The notes under the pieces: model-generated
Told to the model about the DNA's origin: nothing
The model's input: only the letters and a program-made list of their open reading frames with translations
The model's database searches: none
Shown: positions 7,155 through 43,729 of the stretch, one piece after another
Layout of the letters: each line of letters starts with the position of its first letter
Numbering within the stretch: the stretch's first letter is position 1
Program-made: the position numbers and the translations under genes
Assembly: GCA_963702425.1 (NCBI GenBank)
Contig: CAVPCQ010000017.1
Coordinates: 194,325 to 258,324 of the forward strand
Direction of reading: 5' to 3'
Length of the DNA stretch: 64,000 nucleotides
DNA from: an uncultured Acidobacteriota bacterium
GTDB lineage: Bacteria; Acidobacteriota; Polarisedimenticolia; J045

Positions 7155-7203
7155 TTGACAGGGGGAGCCGATTGTCCATATTGTCCTATGACATTAGGAC
7201 AAT
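7155..7203 (+). promoter_or_regulatory. Promoter and palindromic GntR (YtrA-type) operator
   Basis: TTGACA at 7155-7160. Perfect inverted repeat ATTGTCCTA-tgacat-TAGGACAAT at 7180-7203, overlapping the start codon. Confidence 0.7.
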
Positions 7204-7643
7204 GGCGATGATCCTCGACCTCGACCCCGCGCTCCCCACCCCTCTCTATCTTCAACTGGTCGAGGGGATTCGCCGCCTCGTGGCGATCGGGGCCCTGAAG
7301 CCGGGCGACCGCCTCCCGACCGTCCGCGAGCTCGCCGTCCAACTCCGGCTCAACCGGAACACGGCCGCCCGGGCGATCCAGGAACTCGAGGCCCGGGGGG
7401 TCGTCCGGACGCGCGTCGGGCAGGGGACGTTCGTCGCCGAGGAGGCCGGCGAGCGGGGCCTCGCGCGAGGCGCTGCTCGAGCTCGCGGTCGACCGGCTGA
7501 TCGACGAGGCGGCCGCGCTCGCGGTGCCGGCCGGGACGCTCCCCGAGCGCGTCGCCGCGCGCGTCGCGGCCCGCGCCAGCGACGCCACGCGCCCGGCCCC
7601 GACCTGCGACGGGGACACCACGCACCAGGAGGACCACCGATGA
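7202..7643 (+). CDS. GntR (YtrA subfamily) transcriptional regulator, apparent frameshift near 7465
   Basis: PLYLQLVEGIRRLVAIGALKPGDRLPTVRELA...NTAARAIQELE...RVGQGTFV. The helical tail ALLELAVDRLIDEAA continues in another frame to TGA at 7641-7643. Confidence 0.85.
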
Positions 7644-8593
7644 CCGGCCCCGTGATCGAGTTCCGCGACGTCACGCGCACCTTCGGTGGCGCCGCCGGCA
7701 TCGGCCGGCGCACGGTGGCGCTCGACCGCTTCTCGCTGGCGATCGAGCCCGGCGAAGTGGTCGCGCTGGTCGGGCGCAACGGCGCCGGGAAGACGACCGC
7801 GCTGCGTCTGGCCAACGGCGTGCTGTGGCCCGACTCGGGCACGGTCCGCGTGCTCGGGCTCGACCCCGCGAAGGACGGCCTCGCGGTGCGCACCCGCGTC
7901 GCGCTGCTCTCGGAGGAGAACGCGCTCTACCCGTGGATGACGGTGCGCGAGATCCTGCACTTCGGCGCCGCGCTCTCGCCGCGGTGGGACGCGCGCTTGG
8001 CGGCCGAGTTCGTCGAGCGCCTGGCGATCGAGCCGCGCGCGAAGATCCGGACCCTCTCGCGCGGCACCAAGGCCAAGGTCGCGCTGGCGCTCGCCGTCGG
8101 GGCGCGTCCCGACATCCTGCTGCTGGACGACCCGACGGCGGGGCTCGACCCGCTCGTGCGGCGCGAGGTGCTGGAGGGGATCCTGGCCGCGATCCACGGC
8201 GAGGGGGGCGCGGTCGTCTACGCCTCGCACCTGATCCACGACCTCGAGCGCGTCGCCGACCGGGTGGTCTACCTCGACGGCGGGCGGATCCGGATGCAGG
8301 GATCGATCGACGAGCTGCGGCGGCGCGTCAAGCGGCTGACCGCGATCTTCGAGGGTGATGCGTTCGAGCTGCCCCCCTTCCCCGGGCTGCTCGACCAGCG
8401 CGTCGCGGGCCGCACGCTCGCCGTGATCGCCGAGCGGCGGGACGGGACGGAGGCCGCAGACCTCGCCGCGCTCGCGGAGCGGTTGCGGGGGCTGGGCGCG
8501 GCGCGCGTGGACGTCGAGGACCTGGGGCTCGAGGAGATCCTCGTCGCCGCGCTGCGCCGGCGCGAGCCCGCGCAGGAGGCCGTCCATGTTTAG
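7640..8593 (+). CDS. ABC transporter ATP-binding protein (YtrB-like)
   Basis: Walker A GRNGAGKTT, LSRG signature, LLLDDPT Walker B and the SH switch. Confidence 0.92.
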   Translation: MTGPVIEFRDVTRTFGGAAGIGRRTVALDRFSLAIEPGEVVALVGRNGAGKTTALRLANGVLWPDSGTVRVLGLDPAKDGLAVRTRVALLSEENALYPWMTVREILHFGAALSPRWDARLAAEFVERLAIEPRAKIRTLSRGTKAKVALALAVGARPDILLLDDPTAGLDPLVRREVLEGILAAIHGEGGAVVYASHLIHDLERVADRVVYLDGGRIRMQGSIDELRRRVKRLTAIFEGDAFELPPFPGLLDQRVAGRTLAVIAERRDGTEAADLAALAERLRGLGAARVDVEDLGLEEILVAALRRREPAQEAVHV

Positions 8594-12233: not shown

Positions 12234-12932
12234 ATGACCCGCTCGATCCGCTCGCTCTTCGTGACCGCCCTCGCCGCCCTGGCGATCCTGGTTCCCTCGA
12301 CCGCCCTCGCCGCCGATAACGCGGTCTACGTCGTGCACGGTATCCCGGGGGCCGTGGTCGACGTCTACGTCAACGGTGGCCTCGCGCTCGAGGACTACAC
12401 CTTCGGGACCGTCGTCGGACCGCTGCCGCTCCCCCCCGGGACCTACACCGTGGAGGTCTTCCTGGCGAACTCCGACCCGACGACTGCCGAGGCGGTCATC
12501 CGGCTGGATGACGCCGCGCTGCCGGGCGGCCTGAACCTCTCGCTGGTCGCGGCGTTGACCCCCGGCGGCACGCCGGCGATCCTGCCCTTCGTCAACGACG
12601 TCTCGCCGGTGATGCCGAACTTCGGCCGCCTCGGGCTGCGGCACGCGGCCGACGCCCCAGGCTTCGTCATCAACTCGCGTGGTATCGGCCGCGTCAACTT
12701 CTCCGCCGGCAGCGGAATTGACCTTGACGTGCTCGCCCGGACCTACACGCTCCCCTTCGCGCTCTTCAACGGCGGCAACGGGATGCCGGTCATGGGGCCC
12801 GAGTTCCTGACCGTGAAGACCGGCACCTTCACCATCGGCTACGTCGTGGGCTCCGCTCCCGCAGGGAACCTCTCGTTGGTCACGCAGGAGATCCCGCTCG
12901 AGACGATGAAGGCCGCCCGCGCGCGGCGCTGA
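12234..12932 (+). CDS. DUF4397-like exported protein
   Basis: Signal peptide, VYVVHGIPG..VDVYVNG and RHAADAP repeat motifs. Confidence 0.75.
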   Translation: MTRSIRSLFVTALAALAILVPSTALAADNAVYVVHGIPGAVVDVYVNGGLALEDYTFGTVVGPLPLPPGTYTVEVFLANSDPTTAEAVIRLDDAALPGGLNLSLVAALTPGGTPAILPFVNDVSPVMPNFGRLGLRHAADAPGFVINSRGIGRVNFSAGSGIDLDVLARTYTLPFALFNGGNGMPVMGPEFLTVKTGTFTIGYVVGSAPAGNLSLVTQEIPLETMKAARARR

Positions 12933-12983
12933 CCCTGCTCCGGGGCCTCCCTGCGGCCCCGTTCTCCTTCCTCCCCCGCACCG

Positions 12984-13018
12984 CCGGCCGTGGGCTTCGT
13001 GCCCACGGCCGGTTTTCT
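12984..13018 (+). terminator. Rho-independent terminator
   Basis: Stem CCGGCCGTGGGC / GCCCACGGCCGG followed by TTTTCT. Confidence 0.8.
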
Positions 13019-13050
13019 GTACAGCCTCTTCGCCTGCGAGTTGCAGCCGT

Positions 13051-13587
13051 TCAGTTCGTCTGCGTCTCGAGGTCGGACTTGGGGCTCGTCGTCTTCGTCG
13101 CGCGACACGGACAGCCGTCCTTGTTGCCGCAGTTGCACGTGCCCAGGCAGTCGTCGCGATCCTTCGAGACCACGGTGCCGCACCATTCGACGGTGATCCC
13201 CTCCTTCGCCGCCGCGAGCAGTCCGGCCGGCAGCAACTCCGCCGGGAGCGCGGCGAAGCTGCCAAGCGGCCGGGCGACCTGCCTGGCCTCGGGTTCGTGC
13301 CCGAGCGTGGAGAGCCGGTCGCGCAGCCGGGCGAACGCCGTCGCCGAGACGAGCGCGCTGCCGTCCATCGCGCGGCCGGCCGGCTCGCAGCCGGGAACGG
13401 AGATCTCGGCCAGAACCGTGGGTCCCTGGAGCGCGCGGATCGTCGTCACGTGCTGCTGGAGATCGCAGATGTAGGCGATCTCGAGTGGCGGCGGAGCAGC
13501 GGCGGCGGCCGCGGCTGGGACCGCGAGCACGGCAAGGACGACGAGCAGGGCGGGATAGGTACGGGTTCGGAGCGGGATGGGAAGCAT
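13051..13587 (-). CDS. Hypothetical exported protein with a Cys-rich C-terminus
   Basis: RBS GGAGG, signal peptide, and C-terminal WCGT...CLGTCNCGNKDGCPCR. Confidence 0.6.
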   Translation of the reverse strand: MLPIPLRTRTYPALLVVLAVLAVPAAAAAAAPPPLEIAYICDLQQHVTTIRALQGPTVLAEISVPGCEPAGRAMDGSALVSATAFARLRDRLSTLGHEPEARQVARPLGSFAALPAELLPAGLLAAAKEGITVEWCGTVVSKDRDDCLGTCNCGNKDGCPCRATKTTSPKSDLETQTN

Positions 13588-13801
13588 CGGGGAACCTCCT
13601 TCGGCGGTCGCGGACGCCGCGCCGCAGGCAGGAGAGTCGGGCGCAGGGCGCGGGAATGCGAGCAGGAAGCTGCCGGACCGTCCCCGCCGCGGGATCGGAG
13701 GGCCGCGGGATGCGCCAGTGGCGCGGTGCGCCAGAAAGACGCGGCCAAGGTCACTCTTCAGCCCGGTAATTCCTCGGAAGGGGCGACGGCAAGGGGCCTC
13801 G

Positions 13802-13856
13802 AATCAATGACTTGACCCGACGCGGCGATTCTCCGCCTGCTGGCATCCGCCTTGCT
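13802..13856 (+). promoter_or_regulatory. IHF site plus sigma54 (-24/-12) promoter
   Basis: AATCAA-TGAC-TTG at 13802-13814 matches WATCAANNNNTTR. TGGCATCCGCCTTGCT at 13841-13856 has GG-N10-GC. Confidence 0.65.
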
Positions 13857-13866
13857 CTATTAGGAG

Positions 13867-13995
13867 CGACAAGATCAAGTCGGGACATCGCCGAGAGCCA
13901 GCGACAGGGCAGATGTTCGATGGGCTCCGAAGGCCCGACCTGACCTCCTCCTCCCCTCCCTTGGCCCCCGGTGAAAACCGGGGGCTCGTCTTTTT
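13867..13995 (+). ncRNA. Putative sigma54-dependent small RNA (~130 nt)
   Basis: Lies between the sigma54 promoter and a + strand terminator, with no credible ORF. Contains a CCTCCTCCTCCCCTCCC tract at 13944-13960. Confidence 0.5.
13964..13995 (+). terminator. Rho-independent terminator
   Basis: GCCCCCGGT-GAAA-ACCGGGGGC followed by TCGTCTTTTT. Confidence 0.75.
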
Positions 13996-14007
13996 CGATC
14001 GAGCGGA

Positions 14008-14697
14008 TTACGGCCCGGCGCGCCGCATCACCTGCGCGAGCGCGCCGTCGAACATCGCGCGCGTCAGCCTCCCGGTGTTCGTGTTCTGACGCGACACGTG
14101 GTACGAGTCGATCAGCCACCGCCCGGCCGGCAGTTCGTGTTCCGCGCCGTGCGCGAAACGGTGCGCCGCCGCCGGGAGGCCGAAGCGCGCGAGCAGCGCG
14201 TCGTGTCCGATGCGCCCCAGCGCCAGATAGGCCCTGGTCTCGCCGAGCAGCGCCAGCTCGCGTTCCGTCCACTTCGCGCAGGCGACGATCTCCTCGCGCG
14301 CCGGCTTGTTGGCGGGCGGGGCGCAGCGCACCGCCGCCGTGATGTAGACGTCGTGCAGCACCAGCCCGTCGACCCGATCCCGCGATTCCGGGGCCGACGA
14401 CAGCCCCGCGCGGAAGAGTGCGTCGTACAGGAAGAGCCCCGACGCGTCGCCGGTGAACGGGCGGCCGGTCCGGTTGGAGCCGTGCGCCCCCGGCGCGAGG
14501 CCGAAGATCACGAGGCGTGCCGCGGGATCGCCGAACCCGGGGACCGGCCGCGCCCAGTAGACGTCGCCGCGGTGCGCGCGCTTCTTCGCCCGGCCGACCT
14601 GCTCGCGCCACGCCACGAGCCGCGGGCAGGCGCGGCAGTGCACCAGTTCCTGGTGCAACCGCTCGAGGGGACCGGGTTCGCGGGGGCGAGGCGTCAT
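14008..14697 (-). CDS. Uracil-DNA glycosylase, family 5 (UdgB-like, Fe-S)
   Basis: CRACPRL, GLAPGAHGSNRTGRPFTGD, VRCAPPANKP and SYHVSRQNT motifs. Confidence 0.92.
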   Translation of the reverse strand: MTPRPREPGPLERLHQELVHCRACPRLVAWREQVGRAKKRAHRGDVYWARPVPGFGDPAARLVIFGLAPGAHGSNRTGRPFTGDASGLFLYDALFRAGLSSAPESRDRVDGLVLHDVYITAAVRCAPPANKPAREEIVACAKWTERELALLGETRAYLALGRIGHDALLARFGLPAAAHRFAHGAEHELPAGRWLIDSYHVSRQNTNTGRLTRAMFDGALAQVMRRAGP

Positions 14698-14796
14698 GCG
14701 CGGCATGCTAACGCCTGGCCCGCGAGCCGGGGCAACGGGCGCGCTTTGCGGGCAGGGTCCGGTCGGCCGGAGAATGTCTCCCCGCGGAGGATCGCC

Positions 14797-15516
14797 ATGA
14801 ACTTCGGCCTCATCGATCGTGTCGTCATCGTCACCGGGGCCGCCGGGGCCCTCGGCTCCGTCGTCGCCCGGCAACTCCTCGGCCAGGGTACGCGCGTCGC
14901 GCTGGCGGACCTCGTTCCGGACGCGGTGCGGGCCGAGTCCGGCGCGCGGGCCGCGTCGGAGAGCGCGTGGGTCGCCGAGGCGACCGACCTGACCGATCCC
15001 GCGGCGGTCGCGCGGATGGTCGACGGTACGCTGCAGCGCTTCGGCCGGGTCGATGGTCTCGTCAATATCGCCGGAGGCTACCGAGCGGGCGCGCCCGTGC
15101 ACGAGATGACGCTCTCCGACTGGGAGTTCATGTTCGCGATCAACGTCCGCTCGGCGCTGCTCGCATCGCGCGCCGTGGTGCCTCACTTCCTGCGCCAGGG
15201 TTCGGGCGCGATCGTCAACGTCGGCTCACGGGCGGCGCTGGCCGGCGTCGGCGACGCGGGAGCCTACAGCGCGGCGAAGGCTGTCGTGGTGCGGCTGACC
15301 GAGAGCATGTCGGCCGAGCTGAAGGACCGCGGCGTGCGGGTCAACTCGGTCCTCCCCTCGATCATCGACACCGAGGCCAATCGGGTCGCGATGCCCGACG
15401 CCGACTTCGGCCGCTGGGTCGATCCGGAGGCGCTGGCCGAGGTGATCCTGTTCCTGCTCAGCGACGGCGCCCGGGCGATCCACGGCGCCGCGATCCCGGT
15501 CTTCGGGCGGGCGTAG
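14797..15516 (+). CDS. SDR family NAD(P)-dependent oxidoreductase
   Basis: TGAAGALG, NIAGG and YSAAK motifs. Confidence 0.9.
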   Translation: MNFGLIDRVVIVTGAAGALGSVVARQLLGQGTRVALADLVPDAVRAESGARAASESAWVAEATDLTDPAAVARMVDGTLQRFGRVDGLVNIAGGYRAGAPVHEMTLSDWEFMFAINVRSALLASRAVVPHFLRQGSGAIVNVGSRAALAGVGDAGAYSAAKAVVVRLTESMSAELKDRGVRVNSVLPSIIDTEANRVAMPDADFGRWVDPEALAEVILFLLSDGARAIHGAAIPVFGRA

Positions 15517-17225: not shown

Positions 17226-17263
17226 GTCGCCCGGGCGCGGGAGAGCCGTTCCTCGACCAGCTT

Positions 17264-17418
17264 GCGGTAGGGGCCGGCCTCCGTGCCGGCCCGCCCGGCG
17301 CCTGCGGGAGGGGCCGGCCTCCGTGCCGGCCCGCCCGGCGCCTGCGGTAGGGGCCGGCCTCCGTGCCGGCCCGCCCGGCGCCTGCGGCTTTCGGGCCGGC
17401 ACAGAGGCCGGCCCCTAC
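17264..17418. repeat. REP/BIME-like cluster: three 40-bp direct copies plus one inverted copy
   Basis: Core G(T/G)AGGGGCCGGCCTCCGTGCCGGCCC at 17267, 17307 and 17347. The inverted copy is at 17393-17418. Confidence 0.85.
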
Positions 17419-18296
17419 AGCCGGGCGGCGTAGTCCCGGATCAGCCCCTCCACCATGACCCCGATCCGCTGCATGTTCTCGGCCGACGACGCGCCCAGGT
17501 GCGGCGTGAAGATCGTGTTCGGCGCCGAGAGCAGCGGGCTGTCGGCGGCGGGGGGCTCGGAGCAGAAGACGTCGGTGGCGTAGCCGGCCAGCTTGCCGCT
17601 CCGCAGCGCATCGGCGACGTCCTGCTCGACGATGATCTCGCCGCGCGCGGTGTTGACCAGATACGCGCCGTCCCGGAAGTGCGCCAGCAGCGCGGCGTTG
17701 ATCATCCCGCGCGTCTCGTCCAGCAGGGGCATGTGGATCGAAACGAAGTCGGACTGCTGCAGGGTGTCGTGCAGCGAGGGCACGATCTCGGCGAAGTCGG
17801 TGAAGAACTGGTCGGGGTGCCAGCCGACGACCCGCATCTTGAAGCCCCGCGCCCGCGCCGCCAGCGCGAGCCCGATCCGGCCCAGGCCCAGGATGCCGAG
17901 CGTCTTGCCCGACAGCTCCGTGCGCTCCAACTGCCCCTTGGGCCACTGGCCGGCCCGGATCGCCGAGTCGCCCGCGGTGATCCGGCAGGGCATCGCGATC
18001 ATCATCGCGAACGCCAGCTCGGCCACGGCGGTCGTCGACGCTTCGGCCGTGTTGCGCACCAGGATCCCGCGCTGCTCCGCGTAGGGCCGGTCGATGTTGT
18101 CGAGCCCGACCCCGCCGCGGATCACCAGCTTCAGCTTCGGCGCCTTGTCGATGTACTCCTTCGTGACCTTGGTCTTGCTCCGGACCAGGACGATCTCGGC
18201 CTCGGCGACGCGCGCCGGGTCGGTCGTCACCTCGCCGTATCTCTCGAGCATCTTCGGGAGCTGCGCGTCGAACTTGTCGGAGATCAGGATCAGCAT
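17415..18296 (-). CDS. D-2-hydroxyacid dehydrogenase (short SerA-like phosphoglycerate dehydrogenase)
   Basis: RGGVGLDNID, GLGRIG, VNTARG and TPHLGAS motifs. Confidence 0.9.
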   Translation of the reverse strand: MLILISDKFDAQLPKMLERYGEVTTDPARVAEAEIVLVRSKTKVTKEYIDKAPKLKLVIRGGVGLDNIDRPYAEQRGILVRNTAEASTTAVAELAFAMMIAMPCRITAGDSAIRAGQWPKGQLERTELSGKTLGILGLGRIGLALAARARGFKMRVVGWHPDQFFTDFAEIVPSLHDTLQQSDFVSIHMPLLDETRGMINAALLAHFRDGAYLVNTARGEIIVEQDVADALRSGKLAGYATDVFCSEPPAADSPLLSAPNTIFTPHLGASSAENMQRIGVMVEGLIRDYAARL

Positions 18297-39885: not shown

Positions 39886-40316
39886 GCGTCCTGCCAGCAG
39901 GACGCATTTCCGCGATGACCGTCCCGCAGGCGCTACGCATCCGCCCGGCACCGGCCCCGCATCTTCTCGCCCCGCGCCGTAACCAAAGGTTGCCGTGGGA
40001 GTTCTTGTGACCCGGGTCACGCCGGCCGGCGAAGCCCGCCGCTGGCGCGAGAATTGCTTGGGTACAGGGTGCCCCGGCCCGCCAGCCGAGGCGATGATCC
40101 GTGTCCTGCCAGCAGGACGTACGGGGCCACCCGTCGTCCCCGGAGCGCGACATGCTCGCGAGCCGACCCTCCCGGGACTGGATCGCTCCGGGTCGTAGTC
40201 GGCGCGTTTCGTGGGACTTGCTGGGACCGGGGTCGCGCGCGGCGGCGGCGGCGCCGCTGGCGTGGAGTTTGCTTGTCTCCCGGTGCCCCGGTTCGCCAGC
40301 CGAGGCGATGATCCGT
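39886..40316 (+). repeat. Diverged 215-bp tandem duplication; each unit has a palindrome, a sigma54 promoter and a conserved 35-nt block
   Basis: GTCCTGC-CA-GCAGGAC at 39888 and 40103. TGGCG-N6-TTGCT at 40043 and 40258. Blocks at 40068-40102 and 40282-40316 are 33/35 identical. Confidence 0.75.
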
Positions 40317-40409
40317 TCCACGAGTCTTCCGCCGGCCAGGTTGGGTGTCTCTGAGGGGGGCAGCCACGGACCGGCGGGGCCCCGCCCGCGAGGGCGGGGT
40401 TTTTCTTTT
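40282..40409 (+). ncRNA. Putative sigma54-dependent small RNA (~125 nt)
   Basis: Begins about 10-12 nt after the -12 box and ends at a + strand terminator. The only ATG has no stop before the terminator. Confidence 0.45.
40380..40409 (+). terminator. Rho-independent terminator
   Basis: CCCCGCCC-GCGA-GGGCGGGG followed by TTTTTCTTTT. Confidence 0.8.
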
Positions 40410-40427
40410 CCGGGCCCCCCCCGCCTG

Positions 40428-42200
40428 TCAGTGCAGGCGGAACTCCTCGAGCTTGCGGTAGAGGTTGCTGCGCGCGAGCCCCGCGAGGCGGGCCGCTTCC
40501 GCGAGGTTGCCGCCGCAGCGCTCGAGCAGCCGGGCGAAGTAGATCCGGTCGAAGCGCTGCCGCGCCTCGCGCCAGTTCCCCTCGAGCCCCAGCAGCATGC
40601 CGCCCACCGCCGCATTGGACCCGCCGGCAACCTCCGCCGGGAGCAGGCTGAGGTGCAGCACCGGCCCGTCGGCGAGGGCGACCGCGCGCGCGATCGCGTG
40701 GCGCAGCTCGCGCACGTTGCCGGGCCAGGCGTAGCCGACGAGCATCCGCGCCGCCTGCAGGTCGATCCCGCGGAACGGGTGGCCCTGCACCGCGGCCGCC
40801 TGGCGGGCGAAGGCGCGCGCGAGCGGGAGCACGTCCTCCGGCCGCTCCCGGAGCGGCGGCACGCGCACCACGGCGCCGGCGATCCGGTAGAGCAGGTCGC
40901 GCCGGAAGTGTCCCTGTTCGGCCTCGGCGTGCAGGTCGCGGTGGGTCGCCGCGACGATCCGGACGTCGACCGGGACGGCGGCGGGCGCGCCGACCGGCTG
41001 GACCTCCCCGGACTCGAGCGCGCGCAGCAGCTTCGGCTGCAGCGCCGGCGGCAGGTCGCCGACCTCGTCCAGCAGCAGCGTGCCGCCGGAGGCCTGCACC
41101 AGCCGCCCGGTGCGCTCGCCGACCCCGGTCGCGACCCCCTTCTCGATCCCGAACAGCTCGGCTTCGAGCAGCTCGCTCGGCACGGCGGAACAGTTGATCG
41201 CAACGAACGGACCCGAGCGGCGCCGCGACTGCGCGTGGATCCGGCGCGCGAGCAGTTCCTTGCCGGTGCCGGTCTCGCCGACCAGCAGAACGGCCAGCGG
41301 GCTGGCCGCCAGGCGATCGACCTCCTCGAGCAGCTGGCGGCAGGCCTCGGAGGCGAAGACGAACTCCGGCATGCCCGCCAGCGGGTCAACCCCGGGGAGC
41401 GCCGCAACGGGCGGCGCGTCGACGGCCGGCCCGTCGAACAGCCAGCGCAGCAGCTCGCCGAGCAGCTGCAACTCGGTCTCTCCCGCCGACGGGTGGTCCC
41501 AGGGGTGGGCGCAGAGCACCGTGCCCGTCCCGACCCCCCCGAGCCGCCGCAGGAACACGCCGTCGGGAACCGCCTCGTTCCGCCCCGGCGCCGACGCCGC
41601 GCCGAGCACCGTCTCGAGCGCCGCCGGGAGCGGCTCTCCCCAGGCCGCGACGATCGCCGCACCCCCGGCTCCCAGCTGCAGCAGGGCCACACCGCGCGCA
41701 GCGCCGGCGAGCGCGACGCGGGCGAGGAGTGCGGCCGCGAGCGCGTCGCGATCGGGCGCTTGGGCCAGCAGGTCCGCGACCTCGGCGATCCCCTCGCGCG
41801 AGCCCTTCGCGGCCGGCGTCCGCAGGTCGAACGCGTCGAGCGGCGGCGTCGCCTCCCGGACGCGACGGGGCGCGCCGGGAGGGAGCTGCATTCCGTCGTC
41901 CGATCCCGCGAGCGAGATCCCCTCGCGCAGCGTCAGCAGCACGCGCCCAGCCACGAACCAGTCGTCGGGCCGGACCGTCGCCGAGGCGACGCGCTGCCCG
42001 TCGACCCACAGGCCGTTCATGCTCCCGAGGTCCTCGACGTGCAACGCCCGTCCGCGCAGCTCGAGCTGCAGGTGCCGGCTCGACACGGCCGGATCGTCGA
42101 TGAGGATCTCGCAGGAGGGGTCGCGGCCGGCGTAGAACGTCCCCGAGCCGAGCGGCCAGCGCACCGAGCGTCCATCGATCCGGGCTTCGAGGTAGTGCAA
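40428..42200 (-). CDS. FHA-domain sigma54-dependent enhancer-binding protein (AAA+, Fis HTH)
   Basis: FHA motifs (GRDP..VSSRH..DLGSMNG), GETGTGKE, ELFGIEKGVATGV, LLDEVG, WPGNVREL and a C-terminal HTH. Confidence 0.9.
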   Translation of the reverse strand: MHYLEARIDGRSVRWPLGSGTFYAGRDPSCEILIDDPAVSSRHLQLELRGRALHVEDLGSMNGLWVDGQRVASATVRPDDWFVAGRVLLTLREGISLAGSDDGMQLPPGAPRRVREATPPLDAFDLRTPAAKGSREGIAEVADLLAQAPDRDALAAALLARVALAGAARGVALLQLGAGGAAIVAAWGEPLPAALETVLGAASAPGRNEAVPDGVFLRRLGGVGTGTVLCAHPWDHPSAGETELQLLGELLRWLFDGPAVDAPPVAALPGVDPLAGMPEFVFASEACRQLLEEVDRLAASPLAVLLVGETGTGKELLARRIHAQSRRRSGPFVAINCSAVPSELLEAELFGIEKGVATGVGERTGRLVQASGGTLLLDEVGDLPPALQPKLLRALESGEVQPVGAPAAVPVDVRIVAATHRDLHAEAEQGHFRRDLLYRIAGAVVRVPPLRERPEDVLPLARAFARQAAAVQGHPFRGIDLQAARMLVGYAWPGNVRELRHAIARAVALADGPVLHLSLLPAEVAGGSNAAVGGMLLGLEGNWREARQRFDRIYFARLLERCGGNLAEAARLAGLARSNLYRKLEEFRLH

Positions 42201-42253
42201 CGTCCATCCCCCCCGGGAATGGTGTGCATTGTACGGCGGATGACGGACAGCGT

Positions 42254-42467
42254 GTAGGGGCCGGCCTCCGTGCCGGCCCGCAACGTGCGCCGCGCGGCCT
42301 GCAGGGGCCGGCCTCCGTGCCGGCCCGCAACGTGCGCCGCGCGGCGTGTAGGGGCCGGCCTCCGTGCCGGCCCGCAACGTGCGCCGCGCGGCCTGCAGGG
42401 GCCGGCCTCCGTGCCGGCCCATCGTGTCGTCGGAACGACTCGGGCCGGCACGGAGGCCGGCCCCTAC
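42254..42467. repeat. REP/BIME-like cluster: four 47-bp direct copies plus one inverted copy
   Basis: G(T/C)AGGGGCCGGCCTCCGTGCCGGCCC at 42254, 42301, 42348 and 42395, inverted at 42442-42467. Same core as the 17.3-kb cluster. Confidence 0.88.
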
Positions 42468-43729
42468 AGGTCGCGCAGCAGGGGGTGCGTCAGGCAGTGC
42501 GGTCCGCCGCGCGCACGGGAGAGTTCGTGGCTGGCGATCAGCACGCAGACCCGTCCGGGGTCGTCCGGATCGATCTCCTCGCGGCCGAGCAGCAGGTCCT
42601 CGCCGGTCACGACCCGGAAGCCACGGCGCGCCAGCTCATCGGCCGTCGCGACGTTGCGGTCGTAGAGCGCGATCACGCCCGGCGCGAGCGCGAAGGCGTT
42701 GGCGCCGTCGGTCCACTGCTCGCGCTGCTGCGCGACCGGATCGCTGCCGCCGCAGGGGACCGGCTCCAACTCGACGCCATGGCGCCGCAGCGTCGCCAGC
42801 GGGTGGTCCGCGGCCTGCGCCTGCGGGCCTGGCGCGTGAAGGTCCACCTGGTAGACCCGCGCCTCCTCGAGGCCCCCTTCGAGCATCACCGGCGGGTAGA
42901 CCAGGGCCATCCCCCGATCGATCGGGGTGAACAGCGTGTCGAGGTGCATGTAAGCCCGGCGATGCGGCAGCTCGACGATCACCAGCCAGCGCGGTGCGCC
43001 CTCGCGGCGCGCGAGACCCCGCGCGAGCCGCTGGACGCCGAGGCGGTTCGTCCGCTCCGACAGCCCGACCGCGAGCACGTCCGGCGAGAGGACCAGCACG
43101 TCACCCCCCTCGAGGCAGGGCCGGTGCAGCCCCGCGACGAGGTGCCGTTCGGTGGCGGGATCGAGCGGATCGAAGAGGACCGGCGTCGCGGCCAGCCGGG
43201 GGTGGAAGCGGAAGATCGCGCGCGACAGCAGCGCCTCGCGGTAGCGGGCGGTCGTCGCCATCGCAGCGAAGACGACGCCGTCGCCGACGACGACCTGGGG
43301 GTCGCGCTGGAAGCACCAGTTGGGCAGGGGCGGGAGCTCGTAGAGCTCGTCCACTCCGAGGCCGTCGTGCGACGGGTCCAGGCGCACGCCGCGCACGAGC
43401 ATGTCGACCAGCTCGACCGGCGCGGCCGCGACGAGCCGCTCGCGCGCGGCGGGCGGCAGGTCCTCGGACACGGCGTCGAGGATGTACGCGCGCGCCTCGT
43501 CTCGGGCCAGGGTCTCGGCCAGCAGGTCCTCGGCGAACAGCAGCTCCGCGCCGAAGAGCTGCAGCACCCGCTGGAAGCGACGGTGCTCCTCGCGCGCGCG
43601 GTCGCCGAAGAGGATGTCGTCGAAGAGCAACTCTTCCATCATCGCCGGGACCATGCGGTCGACTTCCGGTCCCGGCTCGTGAACCAGCACCTGCCTGAGG
43701 CGGCCGACCTCCGACGAAACGGAGACCAT
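42464..43729 (-). CDS. arcA: Arginine deiminase family protein
   Basis: SEVGRLRQVLVHEPG, LLFDD, RDP, EGGD, MHLDT, QWTDGAN and ELSRARGGPHCLT. Confidence 0.88.
   Translation of the reverse strand: MVSVSSEVGRLRQVLVHEPGPEVDRMVPAMMEELLFDDILFGDRAREEHRRFQRVLQLFGAELLFAEDLLAETLARDEARAYILDAVSEDLPPAARERLVAAAPVELVDMLVRGVRLDPSHDGLGVDELYELPPLPNWCFQRDPQVVVGDGVVFAAMATTARYREALLSRAIFRFHPRLAATPVLFDPLDPATERHLVAGLHRPCLEGGDVLVLSPDVLAVGLSERTNRLGVQRLARGLARREGAPRWLVIVELPHRRAYMHLDTLFTPIDRGMALVYPPVMLEGGLEEARVYQVDLHAPGPQAQAADHPLATLRRHGVELEPVPCGGSDPVAQQREQWTDGANAFALAPGVIALYDRNVATADELARRGFRVVTGEDLLLGREEIDPDDPGRVCVLIASHELSRARGGPHCLTHPLLRDL

Follow-up and report, generated by a model that had tools for sequence, protein, structure and literature searches.

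The intergenic region at positions 13,588 to 13,995 of a 64-kb stretch of the Acidobacteriota contig CAVPCQ010000017.1 (the whole stretch analysed is referred to as the window) raised the question of what a sigma54-type promoter and a terminator might serve where neither neighbouring gene lies on their strand. The sequence-only reading had answered with a trans-acting small RNA (sRNA). Its placement of both flanking genes on the opposite strand was correct:

13051-13587, minus strand: hypothetical protein of 178 amino acids, divergent neighbour of the RNA gene (context only)
14008-14697, minus strand: uracil-DNA glycosylase (UDG; Pfam PF03167), convergent neighbour (context only)

The hypothetical protein had no Pfam match, and an Atlas search with it gave no usable match. 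It is a Cys-rich protein with a hydrophobic N-terminus, and 15 homologues were found (65–98% identity), one labelled Acidobacteria. The protein is probably secreted and lineage-restricted, with an invariant Cys-rich C-terminus. The UDG had 14 close homologues (76–93% identity), of which the named close matches were type-5/family-4 UDGs. Five contigs apparently common to both homologue lists hint at a conserved gene order. A single genome scan, which used the hypothetical-protein alignment as query, matched 25 stretches, two of which were confirmed as related loci (L001 and L002, from Acidobacteriota/Acidobacteria MAGs; approximately 92% and 73–84% identical to the window, respectively). In both loci, the hypothetical protein and the UDG held the same position as in the window, and the gene order and the whole sRNA element were kept. 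The comparison thus comprised three sequences, only two of them independent given the approximately 92% identity of the window and L001.

The following elements were located on the plus strand between the two genes:

13705-13724, plus strand: possible second, degenerate activator site, containing the first TGCGCCAG; poorly conserved
13725-13741, plus strand: 17-mer GGTGCGCCAGAAAGACG at approximately -143 to -126, putative sigma54 enhancer-binding-protein site
13802-13814, plus strand: IHF site AATCAATGACTTG at approximately -66 to -54, predicted from sequence
13841-13856, plus strand: sigma54 -24/-12 promoter TGGCAT-N5-TTGCT, the sole TGGCA-N6-TTGCW match in the window
13868-13995, plus strand: predicted non-coding RNA of approximately 127 nt, start inferred at 13866-13868

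The promoter was present as claimed. Only 0.02 matches to TGGCA-N6-TTGCW were expected in 64 kb, and two of 100 shuffled sequences had one. The -24 and -12 boxes were identical in all three sequences with the spacer between them variable, and their spacing was GG-N10-GC. A scan of 12900-14900 found no sigma70-type promoter. The IHF pattern WATCAA-N4-TTR also matched once in the window (0.01 expected; one of 100 shuffles), ending 26 nt upstream of the promoter. The consensus, described earlier as perfect, was so in the window, whereas the relatives kept only its core: TCAA-N4-TTR was shared by all three sequences, and the letters of the N4 spacer varied. Further upstream, the 17-mer was identical in the window, L001 and L002, and the adjoining block 13741-13800 was identical at only 25 of 60 positions. 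Its sequence suggests that it may function as an enhancer-binding-protein site. The GC-rich repeats or palindrome reported at 13711-13734 were found as two copies of TGCGCCAG (13711-13718 and 13727-13734), but in L002 the second copy alone was conserved and the repeat or palindrome at 13711 was not. The stretch 13705-13724 is a possible, weak candidate for a second activator site; L002 had GTT-N10-GAC at this position, 18 nt ahead of the main site. An NtrC site (TGC-N11-GCA; PMC10746234) was not preferred for the upstream element, with one mismatch in the window and in L002 and two in L001.

Compared with L002, the upstream region thus retained three islands, namely the 17-mer (13725-13741), the core of the IHF site and the two promoter boxes. 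The distance from the 17-mer to the IHF site was 79, 79 and 80 nt in the window, L001 and L002, respectively, and that from the IHF site to the promoter 37, 37 and 48 nt, a difference of 11 bp or one helical turn. DNA looping between an enhancer and the sigma54 polymerase is an established mechanism, and the spacing of 17-mer, IHF site and promoter was kept in helical phase, as such looping would require. The glmY gene, with activator sites, an IHF site and a sigma54 promoter, is described as an example of looping (PMC3045617).

A second sigma54 RNA locus was found in the window at 39886-40410 (plus strand). It consisted of a 215-bp tandem duplication of a GTC-N10-GAC palindrome, a sigma54 promoter and a 35-nt transcript start (94% identical), followed by a terminator. 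The promoters at 40043 and 40258 were each located 155 nt behind a perfect palindrome (39886 and 40101). The locus was convergent with an adjoining gene for an FHA-domain sigma54 activator (an FHA-AAA-HTH protein, 40428-42200) and matched no Rfam family. Positions 13723-13742 agreed with the palindrome of 39886/40101 at 14 of 20 positions, a level reached by 97 of 20,000 random 30-nt draws. Strict GTC-N10-GAC was present at both 40-kb promoters but not at the 13725 site, where the right half was intact and the left half was not. On these sequence similarities, one activator common to the RNA gene and the 39886-40410 locus is plausible.

The start of the predicted RNA was placed by canonical -12 spacing and a conserved GAC, which gave lengths of 127, 127 and 124 nt in the window, L001 and L002. 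Approximately 130 nt without a credible open reading frame had been reported between promoter and CU tract. That distance was 87 nt, and approximately 127 nt is the length of the whole transcript; the lack of a conserved open reading frame was borne out. Small frames did exist. The window and L001 shared an ATG at 13913 (58 codons in the window, 90 in L001) and another at 13920 (seven codons), and L002 had a GTG-started 24-codon frame sharing its terminal TGA with the seven-codon frame. However, L002 lacked both ATGs, and no reading frame was shared among the three sequences. The long frame crossed the terminator, the conserved core CGACAGGGC was read in different frames, the AGGAG upstream was lost in L001 and there was no Pfam match. 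That the transcript encodes a small peptide is therefore very improbable. No tRNA or tmRNA was found, and BLAST against plasmids and phages gave chance-level matches only (E 0.9 or worse). The proposed stand-alone, non-coding, plus-strand sigma54 transcription unit was supported as a prediction and conserved in both related loci, and the locus is very probably a genuine non-coding sigma54 gene of some kind.

Within this RNA, three parts were distinguished:

13868-13946, plus strand: 5' rod, an irregular long hairpin with a basal helix of approximately 13872-13890 with 13928-13946
13935-13962, plus strand: invariant 28-nt stretch, in which the rod masks the first 11 nt and the exposed CU tract 13944-13962 follows
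13963-13995, plus strand: intrinsic-terminator-like hairpin of 10 bp with a GNRA loop, and tail CGUCUUUUU

The hairpin (13963-13986) had a GAAA loop, as reported, and was followed by T5 at 13991-13995. Hairpin, loop and U-run were thus all present on the plus strand, but since the short U-run begins 4 nt past the stem, the terminator is not a textbook one. In L002, the closing pair changed from U-A to C-G and the loop from GAAA to GCGA, both loops being GNRA on the plus strand. The plus strand was assigned from the promoter, the U-tail, the GNRA loops and a G-U end pair, whereas the minus strand folded as well or better, making fold energy uninformative on strand. The conserved AAAGACG upstream of the promoter (13735-13741) and the conserved CGTCTTT of the terminator tail (13988-13994) are inverted copies. 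The GUC of the tail was also predicted to pair with the first GAC of the RNA, with about half occupancy.

The strand bears on an alternative in which there is no independent plus-strand RNA of consequence, either because the hairpin ends the UDG mRNA or because the transcript acts only by antisense interference with UDG. The hairpin and the UDG stop are 21 nt apart, no other minus-strand terminator-like site was found in 12900-14900, and, as noted, the minus strand folds no worse. However, the minus strand carries no U-tract, and the plus strand alone has the G-U end pair and the two GNRA loops. The predicted RNA ends 12 nt before the UDG stop codon, and enhancer, IHF site and promoter all aim into the RNA stretch and are conserved with their helical phase. 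Because the U-tail and the GNRA loops point to the plus strand, the hairpin is not a canonical UDG terminator; a hairpin ending only the UDG gene was among the outcomes that the sequence-only reading had named as refuting its proposal. We consider this alternative distinctly improbable.

All three RNAs were predicted to fold in the same order: the 5' rod, the single-stranded CU tract and the terminator hairpin. In the rod, the basal helix joins the first 20 nt to the 11 nt preceding the tract; when the 5' part was shuffled 500 times, 0, 0 and 1 of the shuffles equalled this pairing in the three RNAs. Whole-RNA fold z-scores were modest (-1.4, -1.6 and -1.8), and shuffled versions of the rod alone were no less stable than the rod itself (z +0.54 and -0.59). 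Changes on both sides had occurred in 4 of the 35 aligned pairs (three in the rod), and 4 cells were unpaired. With two independent sequences, these changes are suggestive only as support for the structure, and covariation counts are weak because only three sequences were compared, two of them nearly identical. The conserved CGACAGGGC is located near the rod apex.

The CU tract CCTCCTCCTCCCCTCCC was found at 13944-13960 as claimed, with the pyrimidine run reaching 13962. Its predicted unpaired probability was 0.89, 0.89 and 0.96 in the three RNAs, matched by 6, 2 and 7 of 500 shuffles. The full 28 nt were identical in all three sequences, with invariance reaching 9 nt further upstream than the pyrimidine run. 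Because the strand masked by the rod is invariant while its pairing partner varies, the pattern points to a constraint on this strand from outside the RNA. The segment GACCTGACCT (13937-13946) is fully complementary to 10 nt of E. coli 4.5S SRP RNA, a match noticed after the fact. The Rfam consensus fixes only approximately 6-7 of these 10 bases, and the match was taken as probably due to chance.

Conservation was profiled against L002, where third-codon-position identity was 0.61–0.79 (11 genes). The 3' module of the RNA (13933-13994) was identical at 57 of 62 positions. Other non-coding blocks ranged from 0.38 to 0.78, and the -24/-12 box was identical at 13 of 16 positions. An exact run of 37 nt (13935-13971) was the longest non-coding one in the 11.7 kb compared; the 13 longer exact runs were all in coding sequence.

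A second CU tract and terminator were observed at the 3' end of fasciclin-DUF4397 genes (window 12962-13013, plus strand; L002 3958-3850, minus strand). This tract, approximately 1 kb from the RNA gene, was partly conserved in L002, its stem well conserved too; it could belong to an sRNA derived from the 3' UTR, or be a 3'-end module of general use. Because a similar tract precedes an ordinary mRNA terminator, a CU tract alone is no proof of a seed. Hairpin conservation is likewise not distinctive, given how well the DUF4397 stem is kept; what sets the RNA gene apart is that the 28 nt ahead of its hairpin are invariant. The tract and hairpin of the RNA gene might thus be the lineage's general 3'-end module for termination or stability, with the RNA acting through the rod and CGACAGGGC. 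Two of the six terminator-like hairpins in the window carried a CU tract (19-20 pyrimidines in the 22 nt upstream), the DUF4397 tract was partly retained in L002 and the offset U-tail might need help. The other four hairpins, however, lacked one (7-13 pyrimidines of 22), and the DUF4397 tract varied in sequence and length, whereas the sRNA tract was invariant, including the 9 nt beyond its pyrimidine run. The 5' half of the RNA (13867-13932), through which it would have to act, was identical to L002 at 34 of 66 positions, no better than neutral intergenic DNA. This explanation is improbable.

We favour a reading in which the tract is a seed. It is the conserved, predicted-unpaired complement of the host GGAGG Shine-Dalgarno motif. 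A GGAGG leader preceded 8 of 39 first ATGs (a first ATG was usable in 39 of the 47 genes listed) compared with 2 of 174 internal ATGs, and pairing of the tract with mRNAs is possible because the organism uses GGAGG ribosome-binding sites. Pairing between tract and leader would involve only 6-9 bp, so that many leaders are possible and none is singled out. Target prediction in the 64-kb window gave no start above background. The best duplexes at 47 automatically picked starts, many of them mispicked, reached -33.1 kcal/mol, which is close to the 1% tail of random windows (-31.2 kcal/mol). First ATGs showed no significant advantage over internal ATGs in tract-to-leader energy (p = 0.11), and outside the RNA gene itself no perfect complement in the window exceeded 11 nt, the one of that length lying away from any start. 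The proposal of a trans-acting sRNA pairing with the GGAGG sites of many mRNAs was thus strengthened by a non-coding unit with an exposed complementary tract, but gained no target above background in the window.

The same results bear on a different role, in which the sigma54 RNA is a decoy whose invariant single strand titrates a pyrimidine-binding protein or a G-rich small RNA. The 28 invariant nt exceed the need of a short seed, and no mRNA target stands out in the window. On the other hand, the tract is an exposed complement of the GGAGG motif in use by the host. GGA is the CsrA-decoy motif, and the apical loop of the rod lacks it, so the RNA is not CsrA-decoy-like. A sponge pairing between the sRNA and the 40-kb transcript was rejected as not above background, and the duplex with that transcript (40284-40409; -28.4 kcal/mol) was equalled by 148 of 1500 random 126-nt windows. 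A precedent exists in GlmY, described as a sigma54- and IHF-driven decoy RNA (PMC4152352, PMC7073468). Overall, we regard a decoy as unlikely, though not negligibly so.

The RNA gene is, on its sequence features, probably an enhancer-, IHF- and sigma54-driven trans-acting sRNA that represses translation through an anti-Shine-Dalgarno seed. From the computed motifs, conservation, non-coding status and predicted exposure of the tract, we infer transcription, activator and IHF binding, pairing in trans, repression and processing as follows. An enhancer-binding protein would occupy the conserved site near -135, and IHF would bend the DNA near -60. Sigma54-RNA polymerase would start at approximately 13867 and stop at the hairpin and U-run, yielding an RNA of approximately 127 nt, with its 5' half serving as a structural rod and the invariant 28 nt ahead of the terminator as the functional part. 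The exposed CU tract would pair with mRNAs transcribed from other loci, at their GGAGG-type ribosome-binding sites, thereby blocking 30S loading and lowering translation of these mRNAs. By strand displacement, pairing may spread into the 11 nt that the rod masks; alternatively, the rod may be cut off to give a form of approximately 60 nt, freeing these nucleotides.

A bolder version, which we consider quite unlikely, is a gated broad-spectrum brake on translation. Here, 11 of the 28 invariant nt would stay masked until the rod is opened by a target or a nuclease, the opening would release a mimic of the 16S rRNA tail that silences many GGAGG-led mRNAs together, and the activator would be common with the 39886-40410 locus, possibly the adjoining FHA-domain activator. 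If true, this would amount to a kinase-controlled sigma54 regulon with RNA outputs. Sigma54-driven and anti-Shine-Dalgarno sRNAs are each already known from Proteobacteria and myxobacteria, and nothing established is overturned; the weight of the finding would grow if a shared enhancer with the 40-kb locus or a gated seed were real. The candidate sRNA family is new to Rfam 15 and belongs to an uncultured Acidobacteriota lineage. It is easily testable because the likely seed, the activator site and the boundary for processing can be read from the pattern of conservation. Neither a described sRNA of either kind in Acidobacteriota nor an account of this RNA was found in searches of the open-access literature, and the main texts of PMC12316311 and PMC11109978 did not mention Acidobacteria.

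The RNA belongs to no Rfam family. The window had no gathering-level match, including to Pxr, GlmY/GlmZ, Acido-Lenti-1, SRP and 6S. Eight sub-threshold matches in 13600-14100 (E up to 10) were all driven by the hairpin or the CU tract; the best of them reached 16-18 bits, where the thresholds stand at 41 or higher. The Burkholderia anti-hemB family RF02837 (16.4 bits; gathering score 49.5), SuhB/MmgR RF00519 (16.3 bits; threshold 41; E 0.82) and Acido-Lenti-1 (11.7 bits; threshold 37; opposite strand) were rejected, as was the Betaproteobacteria toxic sRNA family RF02278, which was absent among the eight. A covariance model of our own was run over the window, L001 and L002 (98 kb). After the three training copies, the next hit was 40304-40411 (16.6 bits, rough E 0.003), which lacked the CU tract and was not accepted as a paralogue.

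Several described systems resemble the RNA in part. GlmY/GlmZ of Enterobacteriaceae likewise lie behind a sigma54 promoter with upstream activator and IHF sites (PMC3045617), and the GlrR consensus given there, TGTC-N10-GACA, has the geometry of the palindromes at 39886 and 40101 and of the right half of the 13725 site. In contrast to GlmY/GlmZ, the RNA has no sequence or Rfam match to them, its left half-site deviates and it belongs to another phylum. The Bordetella S17/Burkholderia toxic sRNAs and anti-hemB share a variable 5' part and an invariant C/U-rich block of approximately 27 nt directly ahead of an intrinsic terminator. As described in PMC11722255, S17 represses several mRNAs and is processed from a long into a short form; S17 is sigmaA-driven with a 9-U tail, whereas a sigma54-type promoter and a short tail were found here. 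The anti-Shine-Dalgarno word CCUCCUCCC is common to alpha-r14/NfeR1 and SuhB/MmgR, where it blocks translation initiation. NfeR1 is reported to have three hairpins each with CCUCCUCCC, and to be LsrB-activated and NtrC-repressed (PMC10746234), a three-hairpin layout absent here, where one linear tract follows the rod. Myxococcus Pxr is also an intergenic sRNA with a sigma54 promoter, approximately 110 nt and long and short forms, but is described with three stem-loops and a position downstream of the activator gene nla19 (PMC5568312); here, there was no Rfam match and no adjacent activator gene. CT-rich insulators also tie CU-rich anti-Shine-Dalgarno words to sigma54 promoters, but their action, by the account in 10.1101/086108, is in cis on a downstream Shine-Dalgarno sequence no more than 25 nt away, whereas here a terminator follows and there is no same-strand gene. 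C. jejuni CJnc230 is described as processed from an RpoN-dependent mRNA rather than having its own sigma54 gene (PMC11187230), and in Desulfovibrio a response regulator with an sRNA as target has been reported (PMC3333781).

Two further features of non-coding DNA were observed. A 31-nt exact match to L002 at 7171-7201, with repeated TTGTCC/AGGACA words, lay just upstream of a gene combining a GntR DNA-binding domain and an ABC ATPase domain in a single open reading frame (7172-8593, plus strand), and is likely the operator of this gene. Arrays of a GC-rich, REP-like repeat of approximately 47 nt were found between genes in the window (17254-17420 and 42232-42474) and in L001 (5989-6327), with copy number differing between the two.
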